Source: a virus (taxonomy: Duplodnaviria; Heunggongvirae; Uroviricota; Caudoviricetes). Taken from it: a stretch of DNA of 46,795 bases. The notes beneath the pieces are model-generated. The model saw only the letters and a program-made list of their open reading frames with translations, was not told the origin of the DNA and did not search any database. Positions 1-46,795 of the stretch are shown here, piece after piece (the first letter of the stretch is position 1; each line of letters begins with the position of its first letter). The stretch lies in IMG/VR virus record IMGVR_UViG_2740892118_000012, positions 1-46,795 of that record; one strand, given 5' to 3'. The position numbers were made by a program, and so were the translations under genes.

Positions 1-3000
1 ATGAAAAAAAATTCTTTAAATGTGATTTTGGATACTGTTTTCTCGGCGAAAAGCATCAATGGTGAGAAATCTCATTCTTTTATATCGTATAAATTAGTTA
101 AAGCTGTAGAAAATTTAAGTGGATATGACTTGGATCTTTTCCTCAATCGTGCGATAAACCATCCTAACTTCCCTAGCAATATGGATTTTTCCTTACGAAC
201 AGTTTTTACAATTGAACAATCTAACACTATTGAATTTAAAAATTTCATTTCAGAATTGGTGTGGTACAAGCATATTTTCATACGATATAAAAAACACCTT
301 AATGATATATTATCGGCAAAGGCAAGACTTGAGAAGTTAGTTCTTTTCGCAACAGGTAGTGAATGTATAAAATATTTAGATGAAATAGAAAGCTCTTATG
401 GAGTTAGTTTTTGGAGCATTGATGCTCGTCTCTTAATAAATAAAGTTTTGCTTAACGAAAGCAATGGGTTATATGTTAAATCAATTCTATCTAAAACCCA
501 CTATAAACTTACAGAGTTTATGTTACAGCAGCTATTATTTAAGCATCAAGTACATAACTTTGATGATTTTTCAAAGAACCTTATAAAAATACTAGATGAT
601 ATGCGCACCACTCAAGATAATGGGTATGCTAGAAATTTAGCTGATGGTATTTCATCCTTTTTAATACCTTTAGAGTTTGATAAAAATATAGATCTCAAAA
701 ATAGAACCTTAGCACCATTTACCAACCTTCCTTTAATAGATCAATTTATCATATTCCAGAGAACTATAAGCGATTTACAACTTCATGGAAATGGTTTAAG
801 AAATAGCGAGTTAAGCTTAATTGCAGAAATTAACAGCTTTATTAAAAATAACTATCTCAACAATATTTTAGATGGAAGAGAGCGTAATATAGAGAATATT
901 GATGAACACTATAAAAGTGTTATTCGACGTTATACTATAGGTGATTATACTGGGTGTATTTCAGAAATAAATTCAGTTCGAACGCAGAAGACAATTTTGC
1001 CATTAATTGAAATATATGCAAAATCCCATGTGTATCTTGATAAGAAAATTTCAGACTCATGCATATTCAATAAATTAACAAACTGGCTTATAGCAATTAT
1101 AAAATGCGACAGACGCGCTGGAAAATACATCGATGAATTTGAACTTTTAGCATCTAAGATATATTTCAATTCAAATTCATCCTCTCTATTCTTCACATTA
1201 TATAATTTAATAAGTGATAACCATAATAAATTAAACATATCTCGTATAAATCTAACCAAAAATGGTTCCTTTGTAACATCCCTTCATTTGAATATAACAA
1301 TCAAGGAACTATGGACTGAACTTGGAATAAAAGAGAATGAGATACCAAAATATCGATTATTTAAATTCAAAGACCTAGCAAATCTATCCTTTGATGAAAT
1401 CAAAAAACACTACGAAGTATACAATGATAATGTAATAATTCGCTCTGAATATTTAAAAGATTATACTAACTTTTTATTAGAAAATGAAAAGTATGAATTA
1501 TGCATCCAATTTATAGCTGAAAACTGCATCGGCAACCCCGCAAATTATTACTACTTCCCAATCCGAAAAATAATTGATTTTGTAAAAGACAATATTTTTG
1601 ACTATGCAAGCGTGGCCTTATCTATATTGATAGATATTTTTGTCAAAAGCACATCAAACACTTCAAATGAGCTTCTTCTCGAAAGTTATGAGAGTTTAGT
1701 AGATATTTCAAATATTAATAGGCCATCTACCCATTATTGCTCTAAGCAATTAACTCCATTAGAGCACTATTTCCTTAAGTTTATCTGTATACCTTCCGTG
1801 ATGGATTCAGACCCTTCATTCACAGGCACGGACGACTTGAAGAAGGAAAGAATTGCTATTATAGATCTATTATTAAAAGAACACGATGATGCAGATTTAT
1901 TGAAAGAGAAAGACGAAATTATAGATGAAATATCATTCGAAGAAATAAAAACAAAATATGAGACAGGAAAAATATTTGTTGATATAGAAAATTTAAAACG
2001 GGCAAAGCTTGAAAGATACAGATATTATTTTGATGCACTTAAGGATTCGCTTATTCTCGGACTAGAACCACCTGAAGACTTTGCTTTAATTACAGACGAT
2101 GGGAATATCACAGCCATTCCATCTGGCGATACAAACTCTATAATCCATGAACTTCTAAAAGAACTAATCTCCGATTTTGTTAAAAATGAAAATTACGGTC
2201 TTGATAAATATTTGAGTGCAGATATACGGCATGGTGTTTTTGAAAATCAACTCAGATCAAGTGCTGAAAAATCGCAATTAATAACTGATATGGATGGTAC
2301 TGGACAGTATTCGAAAAGCAATTTAATTATTGAGACATATCCATTAATTAACCCTATTATAAATAACGAAATAGGGACAGCAATAGCTGATTTCTCTTAT
2401 CACTTTGACATTGAATTGGCTAAAGCCAATTCCTGGTTCAATGTCAAGACAATGCTCATAAGTGAATCACAGCAAGGTATGATTGATTTCCTCATTTCTG
2501 TTGATATGTTTAATTCATTTAAAGCAGCAGTTTCAAATCAAGCATCTTTTGAGAAGTTTTTTGACGCTTGTATTAACTTCATGTGGGAAAGAACGTTCAG
2601 ATGTTTGAATGATATTAAAGAGCGATTGCATTACGAATTTAAGAGGAATATTTTAGATTTAATTGCCACTCTTAGGCATCAAATTGATATCTATAGAAGA
2701 CGTAGTTCCATGAGAGAAATCCAGGAGAAAATTGACCTCTTGGCCGAAAGCATTAATAAAGAAATTGCAACAGTCTGCGATTGGTTAAATGTACTTGAGT
2801 ATAACGAGGAGAAAATATATAAAATATCATCCGTGATGCAGGCATGTAGGAAAACTTTTTTTAATATACACCATTGTTCTGATGATGCTATCGTTTTTGA
2901 TTCAATGTATCATGATGATGAACCAAAATTATCTTATAAAGAAGCCAAGCCTCTAATCACATCAATAATAACAGCGTTAAACAATGCTATGGCCTATGGT

Positions 3001-3276
3001 AATAAAAAAATCTTTATCAGTATTAAGCCTGAAGAAAAGTCATGGAAAATAACCATCAGAAATTTGATAATTGAGACAAAGAACAGAACTACCAACCAAA
3101 TTTTACAAGAGATTGATGATAAAATAAAACGAGGGGATAATAGTCTAAATATAAAAGAAGGCGGAGCTGGAATATATAAAATATATGATTTATTATGTTC
3201 ATTACCGCAAAGATTTAATGTGAATCATTGCATCCAAAATAACGAATTCATTTTAAATATTGAGATAAAGAAATGA
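1..3276 (+). CDS. Large sensor-like protein with C-terminal histidine-kinase-type (GHKL) ATPase region; first gene of a Detocs-like three-gene phosphorelay cassette (DtcA-like). ATG at window position 1, so the N-terminus may be truncated by the window edge
   Basis: ORF 1..3276 (1091 aa). C-terminal ~200 aa carry an N-box-like 'ITALNNAMAYGN', a glycine loop 'EGGAGIYKIY' and a candidate H-box 'ATLRHQID'. No Walker A P-loop seen. Stop overlaps next start (ATGA at 3273-3276). Strongly AT-rich. Confidence 0.6.
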   Translation: MKKNSLNVILDTVFSAKSINGEKSHSFISYKLVKAVENLSGYDLDLFLNRAINHPNFPSNMDFSLRTVFTIEQSNTIEFKNFISELVWYKHIFIRYKKHLNDILSAKARLEKLVLFATGSECIKYLDEIESSYGVSFWSIDARLLINKVLLNESNGLYVKSILSKTHYKLTEFMLQQLLFKHQVHNFDDFSKNLIKILDDMRTTQDNGYARNLADGISSFLIPLEFDKNIDLKNRTLAPFTNLPLIDQFIIFQRTISDLQLHGNGLRNSELSLIAEINSFIKNNYLNNILDGRERNIENIDEHYKSVIRRYTIGDYTGCISEINSVRTQKTILPLIEIYAKSHVYLDKKISDSCIFNKLTNWLIAIIKCDRRAGKYIDEFELLASKIYFNSNSSSLFFTLYNLISDNHNKLNISRINLTKNGSFVTSLHLNITIKELWTELGIKENEIPKYRLFKFKDLANLSFDEIKKHYEVYNDNVIIRSEYLKDYTNFLLENEKYELCIQFIAENCIGNPANYYYFPIRKIIDFVKDNIFDYASVALSILIDIFVKSTSNTSNELLLESYESLVDISNINRPSTHYCSKQLTPLEHYFLKFICIPSVMDSDPSFTGTDDLKKERIAIIDLLLKEHDDADLLKEKDEIIDEISFEEIKTKYETGKIFVDIENLKRAKLERYRYYFDALKDSLILGLEPPEDFALITDDGNITAIPSGDTNSIIHELLKELISDFVKNENYGLDKYLSADIRHGVFENQLRSSAEKSQLITDMDGTGQYSKSNLIIETYPLINPIINNEIGTAIADFSYHFDIELAKANSWFNVKTMLISESQQGMIDFLISVDMFNSFKAAVSNQASFEKFFDACINFMWERTFRCLNDIKERLHYEFKRNILDLIATLRHQIDIYRRRSSMREIQEKIDLLAESINKEIATVCDWLNVLEYNEEKIYKISSVMQACRKTFFNIHHCSDDAIVFDSMYHDDEPKLSYKEAKPLITSIITALNNAMAYGNKKIFISIKPEEKSWKITIRNLIIETKNRTTNQILQEIDDKIKRGDNSLNIKEGGAGIYKIYDLLCSLPQRFNVNHCIQNNEFILNIEIKK

Positions 3277-3722
3277 AAATTCTTCTTGTTGAGGATATTG
3301 AATATAAGCGTGATAAGGTGATCGGTTTACTAGAGTCTATTTCTGCCGATGTATCAGTCGATGTAGCTAAATCTTATGTTTCGGCAGTAAATTCCGCAAC
3401 CAGTAAAACTTATGATCTTATAATATTAGATATGAGCCTTCCCACTTACGATAAGGGGCCTAATGAAAATGGAGGTCGCTTCAGAGTGTACGGAGGGAAA
3501 GATATTATTCGCAAGTTAATGAGAGGAAAAGAGCATCCAGTAGTTGTGGTTTTAACACAACATACAACTTTTGGTGAAATTGGTGAGCAAAAAAATACTG
3601 ACACTCTATCACAAGAGTTGAATGCTTTAATGGGATCAAAATTTATAGGTATTGTAAAATATGACTCAACTAAACCTCAATGGAAAGATGAAATAAAAAA
3701 AGTCGTACAGGATTTGTTATGA
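3273..3722 (+). CDS. Stand-alone response-regulator receiver (REC) domain protein (DtcB-like)
   Basis: 149 aa. REC signature: N-terminal 'ILLVEDIE' acidic pocket, 'DLIILDMSLP' with phospho-acceptor Asp, 'VVVLTQ' Thr, downstream Lys. ATGA overlap with both flanking genes. Confidence 0.7.
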   Translation: MKILLVEDIEYKRDKVIGLLESISADVSVDVAKSYVSAVNSATSKTYDLIILDMSLPTYDKGPNENGGRFRVYGGKDIIRKLMRGKEHPVVVVLTQHTTFGEIGEQKNTDTLSQELNALMGSKFIGIVKYDSTKPQWKDEIKKVVQDLL

Positions 3723-4882
3723 TTAAAATATTAATAGTTGATGACAATAAATCTAGAATTGAAAAGCTAAAATCTAGCTTAACTGAACTCATCACAAAAA
3801 ACATGATAAGGATTGATGAGAAATATACAAGTGACGCCGCAAAAATCGCGCTCAAGTTAAATCAATATGATTATTTAATTCTTGATGTCTTTTTACCTAA
3901 AAAAGATAACTATAGCCCAGATGAAAGAAATGGATTAGGTCTTTTAAAACAAATAAATTCAGATTCTAAATTTTACTCTCCAAAAAAAATAGTTGGCATA
4001 ACTGCATATCTGAATGATATATCCAGATATGAATCCGAATTCAGAGAATATGCTTCAATTATATTCGAGGCTCGACGTAATGATACTGGATGGCTTGAAT
4101 CACTCAAAAAAATCATTGAAAAGGATGTTGAATCTCAAGTAAGTTATAATCTCAATGAAAAAGATAGTGTTTTAATAACAGTACACGGTATAAGAACCTA
4201 CGCACCTTGGCAAAATACCATAGAAGAAAAAATAACCAATATATCAAATAAATTTAACTATATAAAATTCAATTATGGTTTTCTAAATATTCTTTGTTTT
4301 TTATTCCCTCCGACTAGACATCTATTTGCAAGAAAAATAATCCAAGACATACGAATTACAGTGGAATCAAATAAGAATAAAAGAATTTATATTATTTGTC
4401 ATAGTTTTGGTACCTACCTTGTATATTGTGCCTTAAGTAAACTGACACATACGGATGCAAAAATTGAATGTTTAATTTTTTCTGGTAGCGTATTAAAACG
4501 TACTACCTCATTGAAAACATTAAAGCAACATTGTAATGCAATAATAAATGACTGTGCTGTAAGTGATTATATTTTATTACTATGTAAAATGTTAGTCATT
4601 GGCTTGGGCGATGCAGGCAGAAAAGGGTTTATTGAGCCAAATGATGGTGTTTTCATTAACCGCTATTTTAAAGGAGGACATTCAACTTACTTCGAAGATA
4701 AAGATTTCATAGAAGTGAACTGGCTTCCTTTAATTTTTGACAATAAAAATATCGCGTCACGAGATGAAAGAAAAAATCATATTTTTTCCGATGTCACCAA
4801 TGCTTTGCAAAATATAATTGAATATTTAAAAATACCAATATGGTTATTTTTTTCTTTTTTATTGATAGCACTGGTATTATAA
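3719..4882 (+). CDS. Receiver (REC) domain fused to alpha/beta-hydrolase-like (serine esterase/lipase-type) domain with C-terminal hydrophobic anchor; putative effector (DtcC-like with non-PNP effector)
   Basis: 387 aa. N-terminal REC ('ILIVDDNK', 'DYLILDVFLP', 'IVGITAY'). C-terminal part has 'LITVHGIRT' (oxyanion-hole HG), 'IICHSFGT' (nucleophile elbow x-H-S-x-G), 'DAG' and 'GGHST' (candidate acid/His), ending in hydrophobic 'IPIWLFFSFLLIALVL'. Confidence 0.65.
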   Translation: MIKILIVDDNKSRIEKLKSSLTELITKNMIRIDEKYTSDAAKIALKLNQYDYLILDVFLPKKDNYSPDERNGLGLLKQINSDSKFYSPKKIVGITAYLNDISRYESEFREYASIIFEARRNDTGWLESLKKIIEKDVESQVSYNLNEKDSVLITVHGIRTYAPWQNTIEEKITNISNKFNYIKFNYGFLNILCFLFPPTRHLFARKIIQDIRITVESNKNKRIYIICHSFGTYLVYCALSKLTHTDAKIECLIFSGSVLKRTTSLKTLKQHCNAIINDCAVSDYILLLCKMLVIGLGDAGRKGFIEPNDGVFINRYFKGGHSTYFEDKDFIEVNWLPLIFDNKNIASRDERKNHIFSDVTNALQNIIEYLKIPIWLFFSFLLIALVL

Positions 4883-4905
4883 TATCACTGCACATTAAAA
4901 ATCAT

Positions 4906-4933
4906 ATTGGAGCTTCCCTCATAAAGCTCCAAT
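4906..4933 (+). terminator. Perfect 10-bp inverted repeat hairpin (ATTGGAGCTT-N8-AAGCTCCAAT) downstream of the cassette; possible terminator or protein-binding site
   Basis: Seen directly; lies 24 nt after the stop at 4882 in a convergent AT-rich intergenic region; no clean U-run follows. Confidence 0.3.
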
Positions 4934-5361
4934 ATAAAACACCATCATTTCAATAGTACCTGCAGCTAATTAAAACTAGTCAACCGAAAACATTAATCAC
5001 TTTAAACTTTAGTATGCACTTATACTTTCTTAATAATAGAAAAACACTTACAAATAAATTAATCATGTCAATCTCCGTAACTACAACCTCGGAAAGTATG
5101 TAAACAGGAATCATTACTGAAAAAAACACGATTTCAGCAGAATTCTAGAAATATCCTGTGCTGCTGCCGATACCAACTTTCGTATATACTACCCTTCACG
5201 TTCCTTCTCGTTTTTATAAAACTATTCATTTATAACTATCAATAGGCATCATAACCAATGTAAGTGTAAGTACTGGTGAACGAGTGTCAATGGAGTTAAA
5301 AGTATCACTTCATCCTGCTAAATATAAGTTATCCTACGTTTTAATATACTAGAACTCAAAA

Positions 5362-6327
5362 TTAGAATGGTTTGTTAATATTAATAGATTTACCATTGAT
5401 ATCTTTTGACACCTTAAAAAAATCTATACCTTTTATCCACTGACATAACTGTTGTAGTGTTTCCATTGCCTGTTCTAACTCATTTTTTTCAATTCTAACG
5501 CCCCCATGATGGCTACAGGAATTTAATAATTCCTGAGCTAGAGTGATGTCATTCTTCAGCTTATTAGGCAGACCGAGAAAATTAATCACCCTCGACAAAC
5601 TCCCAAGCATTAACTTTTGATAGTCTTCTTCAAATTCCTTTTCAGCCCTAATATTTACTAACATCAAAACATACTCAAGATAACGCCGTGCTGTATTTCC
5701 CTTTTCTTGTAACGCATCTCTATCATACTCTTTAATATCACTCAATTCCTGTAGTAGAAAATCAAACTTAGCTATTGCCAAGTTAAGATTGATGTTATGC
5801 ATTAGCAATTCGGATGCATGATTGCTAACAGGTACACGATTTGGTGGACGTATCATTATAGCCGTCGTGTAACAATTTATATTTGGTATCTGTATAAATT
5901 CCTCACCGGAACGCGTAACACGTTGAACTTCTACCATATAGTGGCCAAATTTATCAATCTCATATGACCGACAACGAGCAGAATATAATTTATTTAGCTT
6001 TTTCCTGTCTTGATAATATGATTTTATTAATACAAAAAATGCTCTTTCGTGCTCAATAATTAAAATAGTCTCTATTGAAGCATGGTACAACCATCCGTTA
6101 TTCCATGTTAATTCAAGCTGTCTATTTCCATCTTTAAAATCAATTTTAGTTATACGATCCCAACTTCCTCTATCAATAAAATCGACAATATTGCGCCCAA
6201 ATCCTTGATAGTTATTTTTAACAATGTGCAATAGTACTGCCTTTATTTTATCCCAATCATGAATTTCTTTTTCATATTCACCATTTAATATATTCGTTAA
6301 ATCACTGTGAAAATTTTCATATGTCAT
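5362..6327 (-). CDS. Hypothetical protein (321 aa), AT-rich island cargo adjacent to integrase; no recognised domain
   Basis: ORF with ATG start at 6327; AT-rich codon usage like the cassette; convergent with the cassette and co-directional with the integrase. Confidence 0.55.
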   Translation of the reverse strand: MTYENFHSDLTNILNGEYEKEIHDWDKIKAVLLHIVKNNYQGFGRNIVDFIDRGSWDRITKIDFKDGNRQLELTWNNGWLYHASIETILIIEHERAFFVLIKSYYQDRKKLNKLYSARCRSYEIDKFGHYMVEVQRVTRSGEEFIQIPNINCYTTAIMIRPPNRVPVSNHASELLMHNINLNLAIAKFDFLLQELSDIKEYDRDALQEKGNTARRYLEYVLMLVNIRAEKEFEEDYQKLMLGSLSRVINFLGLPNKLKNDITLAQELLNSCSHHGGVRIEKNELEQAMETLQQLCQWIKGIDFFKVSKDINGKSININKPF

Positions 6328-6428
6328 AAGTATCTCTTTTTAGATAAAATTGGATTTCGACAAGTAGACGTTGATAACAACAAGACTGGTTAGATAATTT
6401 AATCATTGATGCAACGTTTAGCGTTGAA

Positions 6429-7613
6429 TCAATTGACATCATTACCAATTCTTCCAATGCAATCAGCATACCACTGCATCATCTCCCTCCGCCCTTCCAG
6501 ATACAAAGCATGGTTGTACGTCCCACGAATCGCATTCTTATCGACATGCGCAAGCTGGGTTTCAATCCATGCCGTATTGAACCCTTCCTCGTGCAAAATC
6601 GTACTCATCGTGTGACGGAAACCATGCCCCGTTACCTTCCCCGTATACCCAATCCGTTTGAATACCTGATTCATACTCGCTTCACTCATCGTCTTGCGGG
6701 GATCATTTCGCCCTGGGAATACCAGTGGATATTGCCCAGATATCACCTTGAGTTGTTGTACGATTTCCAGCGCTTGGGTAGATAGGGGGACAAGGTGAGG
6801 CCGTTTCATCTTCATACGCTCTGCAGGTATTTCCCACACTGCTTTTTCAAGATCAAACTCACTCCAGAAAGCACCTCGTAGCTCGCCAGTACGAACTCCT
6901 GTAAGGATCAGCAGACGAGCGGCAAGAACAACTAACGGGCTTCCTGTGTAGCCTGCGAGAGCTTTAAAGAAGTCTGGTAACTCCTCAACAGTAAGGAAGG
7001 GATAATGCTTCGATTCATGCCCTGACATTGCGCTGGTTAGATCCGCTGCAGGATTGTATTCCGCACGACCGGTAACGATGGCGTAACGAAAGACTTCACT
7101 GCAACGCTGGCGAACCTTCTTGGCCTTCTCTGTCGCGCCACGGCTTTCCATTCGACGTAGCACATTCAGCAGAACCAAAGGCTTGATGTCATTCACCGGC
7201 AGTTGGCCAATATAAGGGAAAATATCTTTATTGAAGGCTTCGATAATGTCGGAGGCATAACCTTCTGACCACCGGCTCACCTTCGTTCCGTGCCATTCAA
7301 GTGCCACAGCCTGAAACGTATTATTGAGCTGCACATCGCGAACCAACTTTTCTTCTTTCTTGGCAAACGATGGGTCGATACCTTCGGCCAGCTTTTTCTT
7401 GGCTTCATCACGCAGTGCCCTCGCTTGTGCAAGGGACACTGCCGGATAGACACCAAAAGCCATACGTTTCTCTTTTCCATTGAAGCGATATTTCATCCGC
7501 CAGTATCGAGAACCAGAAGGAACAACTTCAAGATACAAGCCTGCACCATCTGCTAGCTTGTAGGCTTTCTCTCTGGGTTTAGCAGCATCTACCTGTCGAG
7601 CATTAAGCTTCAT
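6429..7613 (-). CDS. int: P4-type tyrosine integrase (site-specific recombinase)
   Basis: N-terminal 'GLYLEVVPSGSRYWRMKYRFNGKEKRMAFGVYPAVSLAQAR' (P4-int N-terminal domain); C-terminal catalytic 'HGFRHT' and 'RGTYNHALY'. ORF track starts at a GTG at 7652; ATG at 7613 has RBS AGGGAG ~9 nt upstream (ATG at 7622 also possible). Confidence 0.9.
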   Translation of the reverse strand: MKLNARQVDAAKPREKAYKLADGAGLYLEVVPSGSRYWRMKYRFNGKEKRMAFGVYPAVSLAQARALRDEAKKKLAEGIDPSFAKKEEKLVRDVQLNNTFQAVALEWHGTKVSRWSEGYASDIIEAFNKDIFPYIGQLPVNDIKPLVLLNVLRRMESRGATEKAKKVRQRCSEVFRYAIVTGRAEYNPAADLTSAMSGHESKHYPFLTVEELPDFFKALAGYTGSPLVVLAARLLILTGVRTGELRGAFWSEFDLEKAVWEIPAERMKMKRPHLVPLSTQALEIVQQLKVISGQYPLVFPGRNDPRKTMSEASMNQVFKRIGYTGKVTGHGFRHTMSTILHEEGFNTAWIETQLAHVDKNAIRGTYNHALYLEGRREMMQWYADCIGRIGNDVN

Positions 7614-7776
7614 TGGGGGCATCTCCCTGGACCGAACACAGAATGCCCCCACTTATGCCCCCAACTGCGACTTGATTTCGGTTGAGTCCAGTTGATAACA
7701 GGAGATAAGATACGGGCCAGAAACCGCAGTATACGGGCTTTTAGTTGATTTCGGTAGACTTGGGAAGAGTTTGAAA

Positions 7777-8053: not shown

Positions 8054-8353
8054 CTACGATGCAAGAATCCATACCAATAAGCATCCGATAATTGGGAAAG
8101 AAAAATCCAACAGACTTCCCACATCCCACACGCGTGGATCAAAACCTCCCCACCACGGCATGTTGATGCGTTTCCCTTTCCCAAACTTTTCTATCCAGCG
8201 ATATTCTGCCTGGGTGTGTTCACGCGCAATGAAGAACGTACAACCGGCTATCGCACCGTAAGCCCAGTTTCCGGTAGAAAGGCCAACCAGTACCTGAGCC
8301 GCAAAAGCGCAAAGCGAGTGAAGAAATGGAGTGACATCAATGCTCTTAATCAT
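8054..8353 (-). CDS. Small hypothetical membrane protein (about 3 hydrophobic segments) immediately downstream of tailspike
   Basis: 99-aa ORF, start overlapping tailspike stop; hydrophobic stretches '[12 protein letters not shown]', '[13 protein letters not shown]', '[14 protein letters not shown]'. Confidence 0.35.
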
Positions 8354-10407
8354 GAAACTTCCCCATTGGTTGAAAATATGGCTCCTCCAACGCCAAGTGT
8401 ATTTCGTGTTGCGCTCAACCTCAGAGGGCTGGAGTCAGAATTAGAATATCCTGTAGCAGAAATAAAAGATCCTCCACTAATAGTCAACTGCGGAACATCG
8501 GCTATATCTGAATAAGTTCTGTCAGCAACAGTATTATTTATAGCCACATGTGATCCAAAAAAACTTCTTATTGTTTGGTTTTTAACTTTACTTCCTTCAA
8601 TGGTTATCCTACTACCACAGTCGGCAATAAATCCTGAATCTGCATCCAGCGTTGCATTCATAAAAGAAGCTTCAGATCTCTCTACATCAATCCATCTAAT
8701 ATCTTTTGTGGGATTTGCACCAAATACATGACAAATATTAGAGTTAAACCTTACACCATCTTGGAGGTGCATTAATTTTTTTATATCTGTACCCCATAGC
8801 CTTGGAAAATTAACAGATGCTCCTGCATGGCAATCAAATCCCAGCTCAACCCCTGAGATATCTACAGCCTTTCCGGAAATAACAGCACCAGTGTCTGCAT
8901 TAACGGCTGTTCCACAATTGCGCATATCATTACCAGCAACATCAACACAACCCGCACCATCAATACGCACACCAAGTGCACATCCATAAAAACCTTTTTC
9001 AATATTTGGTTCAAGGACTTTACCACTTGTTTCTGCATCACTTTCTTCAACGTCATGTCGTCTTGCATCAACATATGCTGTATGAATGCACGTTAATCCA
9101 CGATATGAGCAATGTATAGTTTTATGGTCGCGTATATTAACATTTGAACCATCTCTTACATTCCATCCTATATAACAATAGCTTGCACTTGACCCCTGAA
9201 AATCTGCTTTAACATTATAAATACAATTAACTGACGCAACCGTACTCTCTGTGCACCGTTCAAACTTACTTACAGGCATTGATGCCTTGACATTATTTAC
9301 CAGTTGCAGGGAAGAGTATCTGCTATAAGAAAAATCACATACGTAATACCCTTCTGGCATATATGCAGCAACACTTTCCTCATCAGGAGCACATCCGGTA
9401 TGATATGCACTAATTTTTGCACCAAAACTACCATGAATTCCAACGTAGAACTTTCGAGCACCTGAATACGGATAGAAATTAAGTTCAGCTTTTTGAGTTA
9501 CAATAAATGCACAAACATCGCTATCATCTCTATTTTCTTCAATCTGAATAGCAAATACAGGACTTTTTGCTGCATCGCAAATGTAAAATAAATATTTGTA
9601 TTCGTAATACGTCCTAACAGTTTTAGTAAACAAACTGGTATCAGAGAAAACCACTGAGTCTTCTGATATTATTTTAATCCATGATAAGTCACATCCTGCT
9701 GAAATTTCTATTTGCTCATTGAGCACAAAACCGGAAAGAATTTTAATTATGCAAAAATCAATGCCATTTTTCCATAGTGGACGCAGTGCAACAGCTGAGT
9801 TCAGAGCATCACTAATAGATTTAAAATTACCATATTCCCCAACTGTTATTGTGAATGCATACCTGGAATTAAATACTGCGGCACTCTCTCCAGAGTTAAT
9901 AGCTGCAGATATCATGTCATAATTTGATATAAAATCATTTGGCGTGATTATTTCTGCGTTTTTATTGTGCTGTGTTCTAAGTTTTGAATTTACATGAACA
10001 CTTTTAACTGCAATACGGGAGTCGTCAACAAGTATTTCATTACCCTCTGTTGCTAACTCTTGTCTTAACTGATCCGGATCATACTTCAGCACATTCGGAA
10101 AATAGAACTGCTGCACACCGTACGCATCATAAACAGCCATCGAATGGCCTTGCACGGTAACGAATTTGGCAATCTGTCCGTTATATACCGGATATCCAGC
10201 AGCGTTAATGATGATTGGCTGTGCAACAGGAACGTGAGAACCATCTTCGTTCTCAACATAGACCTGAATCTGGTTTTCTGGATTTACCGGGTCAGTGTCA
10301 ATTTTACCGATATAAATTTTGCCATTGGCTACGGCTTTAAAAGAACGAGCCATAGTGAAGAGTTGCGAAGGCATGCTCACTACAACATTGGCTGTAATGT
10401 CTGTCAT
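8350..10407 (-). CDS. Tailspike protein (P22 gene 9-type N-terminal head-binding domain, divergent receptor-binding domain)
   Basis: N-terminal ~110 aa '[13 protein letters not shown]...[21 protein letters not shown]...NVLKYDPDQ' closely matches recalled P22 tailspike N-terminus; the remaining ~570 aa do not. Confidence 0.85.
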
Positions 10408-27062: not shown

Positions 27063-27500
27063 TCATCGAAGGCATTGCGTCCTGATGTACTCCTGCAAGT
27101 AGTTAACCTGCGCGGTTATCCTGTCGATTCCACTTCGGAGACGGTAATAATTGAGTTCAGCATCTGCTGTAAGTCTTGGGATTTCTCCATCGCCCATGCT
27201 GCTGGCTCCGGTCGTTGACTTTGCACAGGTGGCGGAGACTTGCAGGCGCTTACGACCAGCAGAAACATCAGCACGGAGACTTTCGATAGTCGCGTTAGCA
27301 TCAGCAAGCTCCTTTGTGTATCTGGCGTCGAGTTCTGCTACATCACGTTGACGCTTCTGCATGTCAGCGATTGTGGATGTGGCTTTATCTCGCTGCTCTT
27401 TGTAGGCGATGGCGTTATCACGGTAATGATTAACAGACCATAACAGGCAGACGATGATGCAGATAACCAGAGCGGAGATAATCGCGGTGACTCTGCTCAT
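27063..27500 (-). CDS. Rz: Spanin inner-membrane subunit Rz (i-spanin)
   Basis: 145 aa '[31 protein letters not shown]...' matches lambda Rz; overlaps endolysin stop. Confidence 0.9.
27116..27307 (-). CDS. Rz1: Spanin outer-membrane lipoprotein Rz1 (o-spanin), embedded in Rz in another frame
   Basis: 63-aa ORF within Rz; signal peptide plus lipobox '...LLVVSAC', proline-rich '[16 protein letters not shown]'. Confidence 0.8.
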
Positions 27501-27973
27501 ACCTCAATCTCTCTGACCGTTCCGCCCGCTTCTTTGAATTTTGCAATCAGGCTATCAGCCTTATGCTCGAACTGACCATAACCAGCGCCCGGAAGTGAAG
27601 CCCAGATATTGCTGCAACGGTCAATTGCCTGACGAATATCACCGCGATCAATCATCGGTAAAGCGCCACGTTCTTTAATCTGTTGCAGTGCCACAGCGTC
27701 CTGGCTTTTCGGAGAGAAGTCTTTCAGGCCAAGCTGCTTACAATAGGCATCCCACCAACGGGAAAGAAGCTGGTAACGCCCGGCGGCTGTTGATTTGAGT
27801 TTTGGGTTTAGCGTGACAAGTTTGCGAGGGTGATCGGAGTAATCAGTGAATAGCTCTCCGCCTACAATGACGTCATAACCATGATTTCTGGTTTTCTGTC
27901 GTCCGTTATCAGTTCCCTCTGACCACGCCAGCATATCGAGGAACGCCTTACGTTGATTATTGATTTCCACCAT
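27497..27973 (-). CDS. R: Endolysin R (lambda-type lytic transglycosylase)
   Basis: 158 aa '[51 protein letters not shown]...' essentially identical to recalled lambda R. Confidence 0.95.
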
Positions 27974-28280
27974 CTTCTACTCCGGCTTTTTTAGCAGCGA
28001 AGCGTTTGATAAGCGAACCAATCGAGTCAGTACCGATGTAGCCGATGAACACGCTCGTTATATAAGCGAGATTGCTACTTAGTCCGGCGAAGTCGAGAAG
28101 GTCACGAATGAACCAGGCGATAATGGCGCACATCGTTGCGTCGATTACTGTTTTTGTAAACGCACCGCCATTATATCTGCCGCGAAGGTACGCCATTGCA
28201 AACGCAAGGATTGCCCCGATGCCTTGTTCCTTTGCCGCGAGAATGGCGGCTAACAGGTCATGTTTTTCTGGCATCTTCAT
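27957..28280 (-). CDS. S: Holin S (lambda class I holin with dual-start MKMPEK)
   Basis: 107 aa '[67 protein letters not shown]...' matches lambda S. Confidence 0.95.
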
Positions 28281-34703: not shown

Positions 34704-35521
34704 GCAATCCCCCTGTCTGCAAACTTCCCTTCCCGTACTCCCGTTAACGAATCTTCCCTCAGCAGGTAATCAAAATCTGCCGTCCAGCCCGTGTCGTTGT
34801 CTCCGAAGTAAAACGGCTTGGCCTGATGCACAAACGCCCTGACATACGCTCTGAAACCGTCCACGTTTGGCGTTTTCAGTTGCGGGATGATTTTCTTCAG
34901 GCGGCGTTTGCGTTTCTCGTTGACCGCAACAGCATGTGGAAGTCTGTCACCGACTTCGGTGTTGTAAGCGTTCAGGAAGGATTCGTAGTCGATTCGTTCT
35001 GCCTTGCGACGTTCAGGTTTAACCTGCCCATCGCCGCCCCCGTTAGGGGGTAAGGGGGTATTTGTATTTATTGTCTTTTGTATATTGTCTTTTGTGTTTA
35101 GCTGACTTGGCTTATACCCATTAGCCGACTTGGCTAATGTTTTATTAGCTGTTTTAGCTAATGTTAAGCTGTCCTGGCTAATCCACTGCGAAACCACCTT
35201 GTTCACTCCGATTTTCACGCCATCAGCAATGAGGAATTTACGCTCAATAAGCTGGCGCTTGGCAGCGCAAACATGAGTGTGATGAATACCTGTCATGGCT
35301 GCTATCTGCGTGTTTGTGAGTCGATCCATCGGCTTATTGAATCCGTATGTCTTGCGCATGATAGCGAGCATCACCTTCAACTGCCGGACGGTTAAATCAG
35401 CCATCAGCAGACTGTCGGTAATCTCGTTAGCAACGCGCATGAAACCATCTTCGGTATCTGCCACGCGATGCTCCACGACCTCCAGTTGAGGCCTGTAATC
35501 AGCTAACTTAACGACGCCCAT
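34700..35521 (-). CDS. Replication initiation protein (lambda O / P22 gene 18-type)
   Basis: 273 aa directly upstream of the helicase with ATGA overlap; N-terminal DNA-binding-like region; position between cII and helicase. Confidence 0.7.
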
Positions 35522-35669
35522 GTTTCACTCCTGCTTTGGCTAGTCTGTAAACACCAACAAGGCGCTCTGCGAACGCCCTGTTATTTGCTGCGGCTACCAC
35601 TAATCCCTCAGGTGAATCAGGGTGTCGAATCTCTTCTTTTTCCTGGTATTTCTTACGACGTTTTGTCAT
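35510..35669 (-). CDS. Small basic ORF (53 aa) between cII and replication gene
   Basis: ATG at 35669 with RBS AGGAG 6 nt upstream; 'MTKRRKKYQEKEEIRHPDSPEGL...'; overlaps replication gene start. Confidence 0.3.
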
Positions 35670-35703
35670 AATTACTCCTGTGGATTGATCCAGTCTTTCT
35701 ACA

Positions 35704-35982
35704 TCAGGCCTCGAAGAATTCGCCGTTCTTCGGGGCTTTTTCTTTTGTCAGCATTCTGGCTACTTGCTTAGCCAGTTCCGCCAACTCCTCGTCTTCAACA
35801 CCCCATTCCAGCACAGCCAGAAGCATGGCCATCTTTGGGATAAAGCTGTCTTTCCATCGCGAAATTTGCGATTCATTGATCCCTAATGCATCAGCAACCT
35901 TTCGCTGACCACGTACAGCAATTCGATTTAGGATGTTGCTTGTAATTGCATTCGCTTTCTTGCGAGTACTTGTAAGTTGCAT
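35704..35982 (-). CDS. cII: CII-like lysogeny activator
   Basis: From ATG at 35982: '...INESQISRWKDSFIPKMAMLLAVLEWGVEDEELAELAKQVARMLT...' matches the lambda CII core (SQISRWK...LLAVLEWGV). Confidence 0.85.
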   Translation of the reverse strand: MQLTSTRKKANAITSNILNRIAVRGQRKVADALGINESQISRWKDSFIPKMAMLLAVLEWGVEDEELAELAKQVARMLTKEKAPKNGEFFEA

Positions 35983-36090
35983 ATGTAAGTATTTCCTTAA
36001 CAAATAAGAAGTTATGCGCACCAACTGATGCGCGTTGTATTCCCGCATTTCGGCGGGAATGAGGACCATGACTGTTAAAGAGCGGTGTTA

Positions 36091-36285
36091 CTATTTGTTT
36101 TTCTTGTTGCTTGGGAAAGGACGAACTTCCTCTCCAATCACACTGCCATCAGGCTTTACCGTAACCATAATGTTACGGCCTGCCAGAATGGCCTTGCTGA
36201 TAGCGCACTGGATTACACCAAAGTCACTGGCTGCTTTAGCCTGTCCATGGATTTTGGCGTAATCGGCAAGTGTCATTCGAATCAT
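36091..36285 (-). CDS. cro: Cro repressor
   Basis: '[64 protein letters not shown]' matches lambda Cro; ATG at 36285 with RBS GGAG (ORF track starts at GTG 36291). Confidence 0.85.
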
Positions 36286-36315
36286 ATGCACTCTCCGTTA
36301 TTAACCATGAACAAA

Positions 36316-36357
36316 GAATACTACAGGTATTCAAAGCAATCAATACTCAGGGTATTT
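36316..36357. promoter_or_regulatory. OR operator region: at least two 17-bp palindromic sites (GAATACTACAGGTATTC; CAATACTCAGGGTATTT) between cro and cI
   Basis: Inverted-repeat half-sites AATAC/GTATT seen directly; same family as the sites overlapping pL. Confidence 0.5.
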
Positions 36358-36391
36358 TTAGTTTAAGTACCTTAGCTATTAGAATTAAGCT

Positions 36392-37108
36392 ATGGAAAAT
36401 AAAAAATCACTGACGACAGAACAGCTCGAAGACGCTAAGCGGCTTAAGGCTTTGTATGAGTCAAAAAAGAAAGAATTGGGAATAACCCAATACTCAATCG
36501 CTGATGAACTGGGTATCACCCAAGGAGCGGTAGGGCATTATCTTAATGGCAGAAACGCGCTAAACGTTGAGGTTGCATCTGGTTTTGCACGACTGTTGCA
36601 AGTCTCAATTGCTGATTTTAGCCAGTCAATTGCTGCCAAGGTTGCAGAACAGGCAGAAAGCCTTAAGAGCGATGCCAACGTAAGGTATGCAGGGGAATAC
36701 AGAGCAGGAAAGAGGTATCCGGTGTTAAGCAGTATCCAGGCTGGCTCGTGGTGTGAAGCATGCGAACCATACACCATTAAAGACATAGATGTTTGGCTTG
36801 AGTCTGACGCGCATATTCAAGGTAATGCGTTTTGGCTTAAAGTGGAAGGTGATTCAATGACGGCACCGGTTGGGTTAAGCATTCCAGAGGGAACATTCGT
36901 TCTTTTCGATACCGGAAGGGAGGCGATCAACGGCAGCTTGGTCATAGCAAAACTTTCTGACTCTAACGAAGCAACATTCAAGAAGCTGATAATCGACGGC
37001 GGAAATAAATACCTCAAGGGACTTAATCCTGCATGGCCTCTCGTGCCAATCAATGGAAACTGCAAGATTATAGGCGTTGCAATTGAGACAAAACTAAGGC
37101 TGGTTTGA
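36392..37108 (+). CDS. cI: CI prophage repressor (HTH + LexA/S24-like autocleavage domain)
   Basis: 238 aa; N-terminal HTH 'ITQYSIADELGITQGAVGHYLNG', Ala-Gly cleavage site in 'IQAGSW', C-terminal 'GDSM...' Ser and Lys dyad region. Confidence 0.9.
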   Translation: MENKKSLTTEQLEDAKRLKALYESKKKELGITQYSIADELGITQGAVGHYLNGRNALNVEVASGFARLLQVSIADFSQSIAAKVAEQAESLKSDANVRYAGEYRAGKRYPVLSSIQAGSWCEACEPYTIKDIDVWLESDAHIQGNAFWLKVEGDSMTAPVGLSIPEGTFVLFDTGREAINGSLVIAKLSDSNEATFKKLIIDGGNKYLKGLNPAWPLVPINGNCKIIGVAIETKLRLV

Positions 37109-37125
37109 TCACGCAAGGGGCGATT

Positions 37126-37494
37126 ATGGTTGGAACCGCTATAGCAAGCTTTTTTGGGATGTTGGCAATCTCGACAATTTACGGCTTAGCGCATGCTTTT
37201 ATTGCGAAATCTCTATCAGAAAAAATAAGCCAGGCTTGGGCGCATAGATCAGCTCGTTTCATGATTCTTGTGATCATAGCAATACAAGGGATATCTGCAT
37301 TTATCCTCTATGGATCAAGCTTATACCTATTGTATCAAGGCGCGACATTTACGCCTTACACCAGTGATTACGGAACTCTATACGATGGTAGTGAAGACAT
37401 CACTGTGGCTTGGATCGTCTTTGGTTTATCTATGGCCGTGTCTGTTGTAGCAGACATCATTAAGGTAATTCTCGTCTTAACCTTCGCTGACTAA
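37126..37494 (+). CDS. Small polytopic membrane protein immediately downstream of cI (rex-equivalent position)
   Basis: ATG at 37126 with RBS AAGGGG (ORF track begins at TTG 37105 overlapping cI stop); about 4 hydrophobic segments. Confidence 0.55.
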   Translation: MVGTAIASFFGMLAISTIYGLAHAFIAKSLSEKISQAWAHRSARFMILVIIAIQGISAFILYGSSLYLLYQGATFTPYTSDYGTLYDGSEDITVAWIVFGLSMAVSVVADIIKVILVLTFAD

Positions 37495-37624
37495 CCCATA
37501 ATCCCGGCAGCAATAGCTATCGGGATCCACTTCACATATCCCGCATAAAAATCACTGAACAAGCAGACAGCGAAAAAATAAATATCCTTTGTATTCATTT
37601 GTTTATCATTATTTCATCAAAAAT

Positions 37625-37667
37625 AAATACCTTGGGTATTTACACAATAAAATACCTACAGTATTCT
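37625..37667 (+). promoter_or_regulatory. pL promoter (-35 TTTACA 37639-37644, 17-bp spacer, -10 TATTCT 37662-37667) overlapped by OL operators (AAATACCTTGGGTATTT 37625-37641; AAATACCTACAGTATTC 37650-37666)
   Basis: Promoter hexamers and palindromic operators seen directly upstream of nutL and N. Confidence 0.55.
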
Positions 37668-37713
37668 TTAGCCATCAGCAGGACGCTGGAAGCCAAACGG
37701 AACAGATTGGCAG

Positions 37714-37753
37714 GCTCTTTAACATTGATGGGATTGTCCCGCCGAAATGCGGG
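37714..37753 (+). promoter_or_regulatory. nutL-like site: boxA (GCTCTTTAA) plus boxB hairpin (CCCGC-cgaaat-GCGGG)
   Basis: boxA-like element followed about 15 nt later by a short hairpin, between pL and N. Confidence 0.45.
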
Positions 37754-37896
37754 AACCAAAGAGTAGTTGGCTTTGGGATTGGGTGAATGCGCAGGCTGAT
37801 GCGCGCAGGAGAGCTTCGGGAGAACAAGGTGCCTGTAAATAAGCCGGAGTTCAGCACCGGCCATCCAATCGCCAAAGTCAATCATCGGAGGTCAAC

Positions 37897-38196
37897 ATGA
37901 CAGTAGTCATTACATATCTGGCTGACGATAACGCCAGAAATCGCCGCAGAGCACGCAGACAGGATCAACGTGAACAGGCAATGCAAGAACAGCGACTGGC
38001 GCGAAAAATTGCGCTAAAGCTCTCTGGTTGCGTCAGAGCAGACAAAGCAGCATCACTCGGAAGCCTTCTCTGCAAGAAGACAGAAGAAGTCGAGAGTAAA
38101 CAGAATCGTATTTACTACCGCAAGCCACGCAGTGAAATGGGTGTGACTTGTGTTGGTCGCCAGAAAATGAAATTAGGCAGCAAACCACTTATTTGA
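37897..38196 (+). CDS. N: N antiterminator
   Basis: 99 aa; arginine-rich motif 'NARNRRRARRQDQREQ'; C-terminus 'YRKPRSEMGVTCVGRQKMKLGSKPLI' parallels lambda N 'YSKPGERGITCSGRQKIKGKSIPLI'; RBS GGAGG. Confidence 0.85.
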   Translation: MTVVITYLADDNARNRRRARRQDQREQAMQEQRLARKIALKLSGCVRADKAASLGSLLCKKTEEVESKQNRIYYRKPRSEMGVTCVGRQKMKLGSKPLI

Positions 38197-38204
38197 GGTG
38201 AGAT

Positions 38205-38456
38205 ATGGAGTTTCATGAAAGTGCGATTTGTGATTTTCGCGCTAACGCAAATTCAGTAAAACCACAGCCAATTGCAGTTCTTTTTAAAACAATGGGGGCG
38301 TGGGCTGTTTTATGCTTCGCCTCTGATGACACTGACGCAAGAATGGCAATAGGCCAAGAGATGGAGATGGACCCGACAAACGATGAATTCATAATTTATG
38401 GCGCTCCATCTAATTACTTACTTGATACCTGCAACATTTACAACAAGGCTGCCTGA
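38205..38456 (+). CDS. Hypothetical early-left operon protein
   Basis: 83-aa ORF co-oriented with N. Confidence 0.45.
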   Translation: MEFHESAICDFRANANSVKPQPIAVLFKTMGAWAVLCFASDDTDARMAIGQEMEMDPTNDEFIIYGAPSNYLLDTCNIYNKAA

Positions 38457-45410: not shown

Positions 45411-45758
45411 GTGGAAGAAGAAATCTTCACTCGTGAAGAGGCGGCGTCGTATCTGAAGGTAGACAAAGGCACTATCACGCAGTGGATACGAAGTGGACGA
45501 CTTCAGGCCGCAAAGATAAATCCAGATAAACCTAAAAGCCCATATCGCATTTGCAAGTCAGACTGCATTGCGGCGCTTAAGTCTGTGAGACACAATAGCG
45601 CGGTGAATGCGGTTGATGTGCAGGAGGTTAAAGCATGTCAATCAAACTACGCGGTGGCACGTGGCACTGCGATTTCGTCGCGCCAGATGGATCAAGAGTT
45701 AGACGCTCTCTTGAAACATCGGACAAAAGGCAAGCGCAAGAACTTCACGATCGTCTGA
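45411..45758 (+). CDS. xis: Excisionase (HTH DNA-binding, Xis)
   Basis: 'TREEAASYLKVDKGTITQWIRSGRLQAAK' HTH; immediately upstream of and overlapping int, as in lambda/P22. The 3' end in the overlap is uncertain. Confidence 0.6.
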   Translation: MEEEIFTREEAASYLKVDKGTITQWIRSGRLQAAKINPDKPKSPYRICKSDCIAALKSVRHNSAVNAVDVQEVKACQSNYAVARGTAISSRQMDQELDALLKHRTKGKRKNFTIV

Positions 45759-46795
45759 AAGCAGAAGCGTGGAGAGTAAAAAATCTCGGGGAATCACCGA
45801 AAAAGCTATTCAAGGAAGCCTGCATACGGTGGCTTCGTGAGAAATCGGATAAGAAGTCCATTGATGATGACAAGAGCATTATATCGTTCTGGATGTTGCA
45901 CTTCAGAGAAACCATTCTCTCAGACATAACAACAGAAAAAATAATGGAGGCGGTAGACGGGATGGGAAACCGCCGCCATCGCCTGAACTGGGAAATGAGC
46001 CGGGACAGGTGTTTGCGACTTGGTAAGCCAGTGCCGGAGTATAAACCAAAGCTGGCAAGCAAAGGAACGAAGACGCGGCATCTGGCAATACTTCGCGCTA
46101 TTCTCAATATGGCTGTTGAATGGGGATGGCTTGACAGGGCGCCCAAAATATCAACACCACGCGTTAAGAATGGACGAATCAGATGGCTTACAGAGGAGGA
46201 ATCGAAGCGCCTGTTTGCAGAAATTGCTCCTCATTTCTTCCCTGTGGTCATGTTTGCAATCACGACAGGCCTTCGCCGTTCCAACGTTACAGACCTTGAG
46301 TGGTCACAGGTAGATCTGGATAAGAAAATGGCATGGATGCACCCTGATGAAACAAAAGCTGGCAATGCGATCGGAGTTCCTCTTAACGAAACCGCATGCC
46401 AGATATTAAGAAAACAGCAGGGTCTCCATAAGAGATGGGTGTTTGTCCACACCAAACCTGCCTACCGAAGCGACGGAACAAAAACAGCAGCGGTAAGGAA
46501 GATGAGAACCGACAGCAACAAGGCATGGAAGGGAGCGTTAAAGCGGGCAGGCATTAGCAACTTCCGCTTCCATGACCTGAGGCATACCTGGGCAAGCTGG
46601 CTGGTTCAGTCCGGTGTCTCTCTTCTTGCACTTAAAGAGATGGGAGGATGGGAAACTCTCGAAATGGTTCAAAGATACGCCCACCTTTCAGCCGGGCATC
46701 TCACCGAGCACGCGAGCAAAATCGATGCGATTATAAGTCGCAATGGCACAAATACGGCACAAGAGGAGAACGTAGTTTACTTAAATGTGAGGTAA
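45635..46795 (+). CDS. int: Tyrosine integrase (P22 Int-like, lambda integrase family)
   Basis: 386 aa; '...KRQAQELHDRLKAEAWRV...KSIDDDKSII...RRHRLNW...FRFHDLRHTWASWLVQSGVSLLALKEMGGWETLEMVQRYAHLSAGHLTEHA' matches recalled P22 Int with catalytic R, H-x-x-R and Y; stop at window end. Confidence 0.9.
   Translation: MSIKLRGGTWHCDFVAPDGSRVRRSLETSDKRQAQELHDRLKAEAWRVKNLGESPKKLFKEACIRWLREKSDKKSIDDDKSIISFWMLHFRETILSDITTEKIMEAVDGMGNRRHRLNWEMSRDRCLRLGKPVPEYKPKLASKGTKTRHLAILRAILNMAVEWGWLDRAPKISTPRVKNGRIRWLTEEESKRLFAEIAPHFFPVVMFAITTGLRRSNVTDLEWSQVDLDKKMAWMHPDETKAGNAIGVPLNETACQILRKQQGLHKRWVFVHTKPAYRSDGTKTAAVRKMRTDSNKAWKGALKRAGISNFRFHDLRHTWASWLVQSGVSLLALKEMGGWETLEMVQRYAHLSAGHLTEHASKIDAIISRNGTNTAQEENVVYLNVR

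Follow-up and report, generated by a model that had tools for sequence, protein, structure and literature searches.

Lambda RexB is a polytopic inner-membrane protein that is transcribed together with cI in lysogens, and HK022 Nun and 933W Stk are likewise encoded by lysogen-expressed accessory genes located behind the repressor. T4 Imm and HK97 gp15 are tiny inner-membrane proteins without an enzymatic domain, which act at genome entry. Class I holins, such as lambda S105, are proteins of about 105-120 aa displaying three transmembrane (TM) helices in an N-out/C-in arrangement, and the immunity proteins for pore-forming colicins are typically small and cross the inner membrane with three or four helices. 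P22 SieA is a small polytopic inner-membrane prophage protein that keeps superinfecting P22-like phages from delivering their DNA (PMC10883804). The interval between cI and N of lambdoid phages has been described as a mosaic hot spot hosting rexAB and bstA (PMC8585504, citing Degnan 2007).

The gene analysed here, hkaS, occupies this interval in the IMG/VR virus record IMGVR_UViG_2740892118_000012, whose 46,795 nucleotides are called the window in what follows. The immunity region of the window comprises these features:

36091-36291 (-): cro, divergent from PR, a 66-aa ORF (HK620 annotation; Pfam Cro in homologues from related loci)
36317-36380: OR region, with operator-like sites at 36317-36331, 36342-36356 and 36366-36380 (pattern search)
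36392-37108 (+): cI repressor, HK620 immunity type (Pfam HTH_3 8e-10, Peptidase_S24 5e-24)
37115-37120 (+): Shine-Dalgarno sequence AAGGGG of hkaS, 5 nt before the ATG (read off the sequence)
37126-37494 (+): hkaS, encoding a 122-aa inner-membrane protein with three predicted TM helices, PHROG 6534 (PHROG, HK620 HkaS, AlphaFold)
37501-37526 (+): stable hairpin without a U-tract, 7 nt after the hkaS stop (-13.7 kcal/mol, z=-3.0)
37581-37665: OL region, with operator-like sites at 37581-37595, 37626-37640 and 37651-37665 (pattern search)
37639-37667 (+): PL promoter-like site TTTACA-17-TATTCT, directed away from hkaS towards N (promoter scan; HK620 pL annotation)
37897-38196 (+): N antiterminator with an arginine-rich N-terminus (PHROG 271 at 2.5e-35)

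The hkaS gene has 122 codons, from the ATG at 37126 to the TAA at 37492-37494. The cI stop codon (TGA, 37106-37108) leaves a spacer of 17 nt, which together with the AAGGGG motif confirms the first-pass annotation, where a ribosome-binding site of its own and a start 18 nt after cI were noted for the gene. Divergent homologues, although embedded in different surrounding DNA, retain an equivalent site (AAGGA or AGAGGG). That the gene ends before OL was also correct, the stop lying 87 nt before the first OL-like operator. A longer, 129-aa reading from a TTG at 37105, which overlaps the cI stop, was discarded: the intact divergent homologues all have 122 aa and begin with M-[VIM]-G, and in locus L003 an in-frame TAA immediately precedes the ATG. 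On the opposite strand, a hydrophobic 35-aa ORF (37491-37598, -) faces hkaS and extends over the hkaS stop codon. It has no family match in Pfam, PHROGs, PADLOC or NCBIfam, is reduced to 3-12 codons in L003, L007 and L009, and the part of its 5' end that is conserved falls on an OL-like operator; this ORF is probably not a gene.

hkaS is not new but an already catalogued, uncharacterised gene. The HK620 immunity region is the region present here, with a cI gene that differs from that of the window by 4 nt and 1 aa, and HK620 HkaS (AAK28867.1) is 99.2% identical to the window protein at the amino acid level, the single difference being G20V. In HK620 the ORF, at the same position between cI and OL, is annotated as hkaS with the product "unknown", and PHROG 6534, which HkaS matches over residues 1-122 of a 122-position profile (E=2.4e-79), has unknown as its function entry. 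A total of 16 phage records cover the region at 98-99.7% identity (Megablast), including HK620, HK630, mEpX2, HK140, HF4s, HZ41, 611R6, phi296, phi367 and two Stx2c phages. No functional study of HkaS was found in the literature; the paper on the sRNA svsR concerns a different prophage element, inside cI.

Lambda RexB and HkaS are alike in lying between cI and OL on the cI strand and in being polytopic inner-membrane proteins, as predicted for HkaS. They differ in that RexB has 144 aa and four TM helices against 122 aa and three, and that RexB is paired with RexA, whereas hkaS directly follows cI without a RexA-like partner. Homology to RexB, which the first-pass annotation had suggested looking for, is not borne out: hhalign returned a probability of 0.6% and there was no Pfam or PADLOC RexB match, while as a positive control the PADLOC RexB model matches the protein from locus L017 at about 1e-60. 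The same holds for the other exclusion proteins that it wanted compared: neither T4 Imm, SieB nor any other annotated exclusion family of Pfam and PHROGs matched at E<=1, PHROG 6534 being the only match. HkaS also has no match among 5027 PADLOC 2.0 models at E<=10 and no family match in Pfam (E<=1) or NCBIfam (E<=10). SieA and HkaS have no similarity (hhalign probability 0.3%); P22 SieA has 164 aa and its own promoter and adjoins gene 16 far from the immunity region, whereas HkaS is encoded behind cI. T4 Imm and HK97 gp15 differ from HkaS in having one or two TM helices and other genomic locations and regulation, and have no family match to it.

HkaS resembles class I holins in size, in the number of helices and in its predicted N-out/C-in topology. 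Unlike them, it lacks a charged C-terminal tail (it ends in VLTFAD), a dual start and a match to a holin family, and it is encoded in the immunity region instead of the lysis cassette (about 27063-28280 of the window). With Nun, Stk and BstA (found in locus L020; PMC8585504) hkaS shares the logic of an accessory gene behind the repressor, although these three are soluble cytoplasmic proteins with known mechanisms and HkaS is predicted to be purely membrane-embedded. By analogy, SieA, T4 Imm and HK97 gp15 would be the closest systems in proposed function, and class I holins the closest in topology.

Operators were located with the pattern AATACCNNNGGTATT, allowing up to 2 mismatches, over the whole 46.8-kb window. 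The OR sites at 36317, 36342 and 36366 have 1, 1 and 2 mismatches and the OL sites at 37581, 37626 and 37651 have 2, 0 and 1; only one operator-like site falls outside the two clusters. HK620 annotates OR1-OR3 and OL1 and OL2 at equivalent positions. The gene order is thus lambda-like (OR/PRM, cI, hkaS, OL/PL, N), and PRM must lie in the OR region (36317-36380), directed rightward into cI. The scan revealed no promoter-like or terminator-like site on the + strand between cI and hkaS, and each of the contexts compared (E. coli, Salmonella, Hafnia, metagenomes and the 16 phage records) has cI followed by the homologue. The common strand, the 17-nt gap, the site-free interval and the conserved arrangement suggest that cI and hkaS are co-transcribed. 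Since PL and PR both read away from it, hkaS would be transcribed only by PRM and PRE, as the second gene of a repressor operon consisting of PRM or PRE, cI and hkaS. HkaS would then be made in lysogens and during the establishment of lysogeny, and not from the lytic promoters PL and PR.

No canonical + strand intrinsic terminator was detected by the scan between hkaS and PL in the window, and the tIMM annotated in HK620, equivalent to window positions 37576-37606, folds weakly (-6.3 kcal/mol, z=-0.4). The hairpin at 37501-37526 may mark the 3' end of the cI-hkaS transcript or stabilise it; a hairpin is also present just past the hkaS stop in L003, L007 and L009, with a sequence that differs between some of them. 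An Rfam search over 35500-38400 gave no match. Further downstream, the segment from nutL to the start of N (37700-37896) is indel-rich and variable when compared to HK620 and 611R6, and in strain RM12581 (O145:H28) an IS3 element is found a few hundred bases downstream of hkaS.

The first-pass annotation had described a polytopic protein with about four hydrophobic segments. HkaS is indeed predicted to be polytopic, but the Kyte-Doolittle profile has 3 peaks and AlphaFold, run with the family alignment (pLDDT 89.3, pTM 0.76), places 3 long helices at residues 2-29, 41-74 and 89-121, with a short amphipathic helix at 31-38 and a small beta-hairpin in the second loop. The protein can be divided as follows:

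37129-37212 (+): TM helix 1, residues 2-29, N-terminus predicted periplasmic (Kyte-Doolittle, AlphaFold, charge distribution)
37213-37245 (+): cytoplasmic loop with the short amphipathic helix, residues 30-40 (AlphaFold, alignment)
37246-37347 (+): TM helix 2, residues 41-74, with an invariant Q54 and a YxLY motif at the periplasmic end (alignment, AlphaFold)
37348-37389 (+): acidic periplasmic loop with the small beta-hairpin, residues 75-88 (AlphaFold, charges)
37390-37488 (+): TM helix 3, residues 89-121 (alignment, AlphaFold)

In all six divergent sequences compared, loop 1 carries 4-6 Lys/Arg residues and loop 2 carries 0-1 and is net negative, from which the positive-inside rule predicts an N-out/C-in topology. 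In the inner membrane the N-terminus would therefore face the periplasm, the basic loop the cytoplasm, the acidic loop the periplasm and the C-terminus the cytoplasm. Conserved positions in or near the cytoplasmic loop are K33, Q36, W38 and H40, followed by A43-R44-F45 at the start of TM2, and TM3 carries a polar stripe formed by S102, S106, D110 and K113. The invariant residues include K33, W38, H40, A43-R44-F45, D110, K113 and the C-terminal VLTFAD. Conservation is best in the cytoplasmic loop and in the cytoplasmic half of TM3 with the tail (75-76% mean pairwise identity), and lowest in the periplasmic loop and the outer half of TM3 (47-49%). Only about 15 residues on the cytoplasmic and about 20 on the periplasmic side are predicted to lie outside the membrane. 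With almost nothing outside the membrane, HkaS would have no cytoplasmic sensor, and any anti-phage action would be expected at the membrane level. Fold searches returned generic helical bundles only, and a PDB sequence search gave no match.

Only Enterobacterales prophages carry this very small family, which has 12 clusters among 5.8 billion non-redundant proteins. Its intact members all have 122 aa, down to 52% identity; those with a named source come from E. coli, Hafnia and Salmonella, the remainder being metagenome or read-assembly sequences. An exhaustive profile search over 1.84 billion cluster representatives recovered the family itself and one fragment only, so there are no distant relatives that could lend it a function. 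Among 5426 complete E. coli genomes, 146 (about 2.7%) carry hkaS, always on the chromosome, and the window cI is equally frequent (146 genomes, 147 places in the same set). The carriers are P22-like podoviruses, lambda-like siphoviruses and Stx phages, the E. coli prophages among them including Stx2c and O145:H28 ones. As these span virion types, hkaS travels with the immunity module and not with the virion type.

Sequence comparison shows hkaS to be a real gene under purifying selection, with a constraint about 9-fold weaker than that on cI. The protein is conserved at 52-83% identity where synonymous sites are saturated, and these lineages also share the reading frame, the protein length, the presence of a ribosome-binding site and the topology. 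Between divergent lineages dN is 0.34-0.44 for hkaS versus 0.07-0.09 for the adjacent cI, and the comparisons with a measurable dS give a dN/dS of 0.14-0.22 for hkaS and 0.03 for cI. In a population sample of 79 IMG/VR prophages, we counted 19 synonymous and 23 non-synonymous polymorphisms in hkaS (pS 0.221, pN/pS 0.37), compared to 37 and 5 in cI (pS 0.228, pN/pS 0.04), and the excess of amino acid polymorphism in hkaS is significant (Fisher p=5.5e-5). None of the 79 population alleles contains a premature stop. The replacements are mostly conservative and within the TM helices. T93S/V94M (codons 93-94, window 37402-37407) define two common haplotypes at the periplasmic end of TM3, S93/M94 being found in 35-36 of the 79 alleles, and the other replacements are mostly singletons. 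Positive (diversifying) selection is not claimed, as pN/pS is well below 1 and the changes are mostly conservative; the elevated variation is equally compatible with relaxed constraint and with an arms race. The database alleles P0006, P0007, P0009, P0004 and P0008 carry either a frameshift across TM1 or deletions of 8-11 aa in the cytoplasmic loop, which could stem from faulty assembly or from a genuine loss of function in certain lineages. The GC content of hkaS (42.0%) is too close to that of cI (45.5%) for a recent import to be argued from base composition.

In order to compare what occupies the slot between cI and OL, we surveyed 80 loci from other species whose cI is related to that of the window (40-76% identity). 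Only one, L041, has hkaS; the others are empty or hold varied cargo. The cargo scan covered 19 proteins from 18 loci, and the cI C-terminal domain in the loci named here is 49-87% identical to that of the window cI:

L017: RexA and RexB (1.7e-109 and 1.2e-60)
L020: BstA (1.2e-115)
L024: PDC-S42 (PADLOC candidate)
L028: PDC-M53A (PADLOC candidate)
L029 and L057: PDC-M63A (PADLOC candidate)
L043: mad2-like protein
L073: CapP-like peptidase
L022: weak match to an NYN-like nuclease
L039: MscS-like channel
L019: DUF1275 membrane protein
L036: DUF6414 protein

Known or candidate defence genes are thus found in at least 8 of the 18 scanned slots, which accords with the hot-spot description in PMC8585504. 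In agreement with this, the positional argument of the first-pass annotation, which called the gene a strong candidate for an exclusion or abortive-infection factor, holds, but "strong" overstates the case because the slot may also hold an MscS-like channel, a DUF1275 protein or nothing.

L041 belongs to a Buttiauxella genome. Its cI (L041:3007-3654) has an N-terminal DNA-binding domain unrelated to that of the window cI (20% identity) and a C-terminal S24 domain that is 86% identical, and its operators differ from those of the window. hkaS follows 20 nt after cI, is 56% identical, and is itself followed, 20 nt past its stop and upstream of PL, by a canonical intrinsic terminator (4063-4084). 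This layout supports a cI-hkaS-terminator unit. L041 is a clear case of a domain swap inside cI with hkaS left attached, and hkaS can accordingly accompany more than one immunity specificity. Differing N-terminal and similar C-terminal cI domains, with other cargo in the slot, are also found in L036, L038, L042, L046, L049 and L057.

We tentatively propose that HkaS is a lysogen-expressed inner-membrane superinfection-exclusion protein, which probably would act at genome delivery. It would work in the inner membrane against incoming phages, with functional parallels in P22 SieA, T4 Imm and HK97 gp15. This reading is favoured over abortive infection, lysogenic conversion, control of lysogeny and a decaying ORF. 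Action at the membrane level, for example on genome entry, is favoured because HkaS has no room for a cytoplasmic sensor domain; we also count towards it the variable periplasmic and conserved cytoplasmic sides and the association with the immunity module across phage types. The proposal as a whole draws on the arrangement behind cI, the predicted three-helix membrane architecture and the defence-rich slot in the related cI family. We count against the proposal that HkaS has neither sequence nor specific fold similarity to known exclusion or defence proteins, that the slot cargo is not restricted to defence, that the variation is mostly conservative, lies in the TM helices and, at a pN/pS of 0.37, suits relaxed constraint no less than an arms race, that no canonical terminator follows hkaS in the window and that a few database alleles carry frameshifts or loop deletions. 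More guardedly still, HkaS could found a new family of exclusion factors, each a lone membrane protein with three helices and no sensor. Should hkaS exclude phages, it would add an orphan family of membrane-embedded 122-aa proteins to the short list of SieA, Imm and gp15, the mechanisms of which are still poorly understood, and would extend the rule that the position behind a prophage repressor is a good place for defence genes; the presence of hkaS in HK620 offers a tractable model phage. Without an exclusion phenotype, hkaS would be one more conserved hypothetical gene of the immunity module.

The membrane location can also be read in other ways. HkaS might serve lysogenic conversion or housekeeping unrelated to exclusion, such as bacteriocin immunity, tolerance to envelope stress or modulation of a host membrane protein. 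We consider this doubtful: size and helix count resemble those of the pore-forming-colicin immunity proteins, the channel of L039 and the DUF1275 protein of L019 would suit such a role, and the conserved cytoplasmic face suggests a host partner, but no colicin-immunity or other match appears in Pfam at E<=1 or NCBIfam at E<=10, and defence genes, known or candidate, fill at least 8 of the 18 neighbouring slots. It is unlikely that HkaS is an abortive-infection effector, that is, an oligomeric pore that depolarises the inner membrane upon phage perturbation, like a RexB without RexA. The presence of RexAB in the same slot of lambda and L017 speaks for it, as do the holin-like size, three helices and predicted N-out/C-in topology reminiscent of S105, and the TM3 stripe (S106, D110, K113) together with Q54 of TM2 could line a pore or an interface. 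Yet HkaS is similar neither to RexB nor to any holin family, it has neither a partner sensor gene nor a soluble domain with which to sense infection, and a constitutive pore-former would need tight control, for which no element is visible.

We regard as very improbable that HkaS regulates the choice between lysis and lysogeny, by influencing repressor stability, induction or the FtsH-dependent turnover of CII/CIII. Its transcription with cI from PRE and PRM, as suggested by the layout, would suit such a role, and so would the persistence of hkaS beside a cI C-terminal domain that is 86% identical despite the swap of the DNA-binding domain. CIII uses an amphipathic helix to act on FtsH, and the cytoplasmic loop of HkaS has a conserved amphipathic helix as well. 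However, the repressor can do without HkaS, given that cI genes sharing this C-terminal-domain family function with an unrelated gene or no gene at all in the slot, and hkaS is about 9-fold less constrained than cI. The tight linkage needs no functional reason either, because hkaS is trapped between cI and the matching OL operators. Slightly fainter again is the prospect that HkaS is not a defence protein but a membrane partner of the repressor operon, coupling the state of the envelope or membrane to the maintenance or induction of lysogeny, although this coupling would explain why hkaS stayed joined to the cI C-terminal domain across the swap. Finally, it is scarcely credible that hkaS lacks a function or is decaying and rides with the immunity module as a passenger: its pN/pS of 0.37 versus 0.04 for cI and the few frameshifted or deleted database alleles could be taken that way, but lineages whose synonymous sites are saturated still agree in frame, in the 122-aa length of intact homologues, in having a ribosome-binding site and in topology, dN/dS is 0.14-0.22 and none of the 79 alleles has a premature stop.

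The prophage with this immunity region is P22-like, with a tailspike gene at 8350-10407 (-) whose product matches the P22 head-binding domain at 1.6e-66. The first 7652 nt of the window (1-7652) form a separate low-GC island (33.9% GC versus 47.9% for the prophage), which has its own tyrosine integrase gene (6429-7652, -) and three genes that together match PDC-M60, a candidate defence system of PADLOC:

1-3276: PDC-M60A, 1091 aa, starting at the first base of the window, no Pfam match (PADLOC 4.5e-55)
3273-3722: PDC-M60B, receiver-domain protein (PADLOC 2e-35)
3719-4882: PDC-M60C, receiver-domain protein (PADLOC 1e-22)

A second integrase gene is located at the right end of the window (45635-46795, +).
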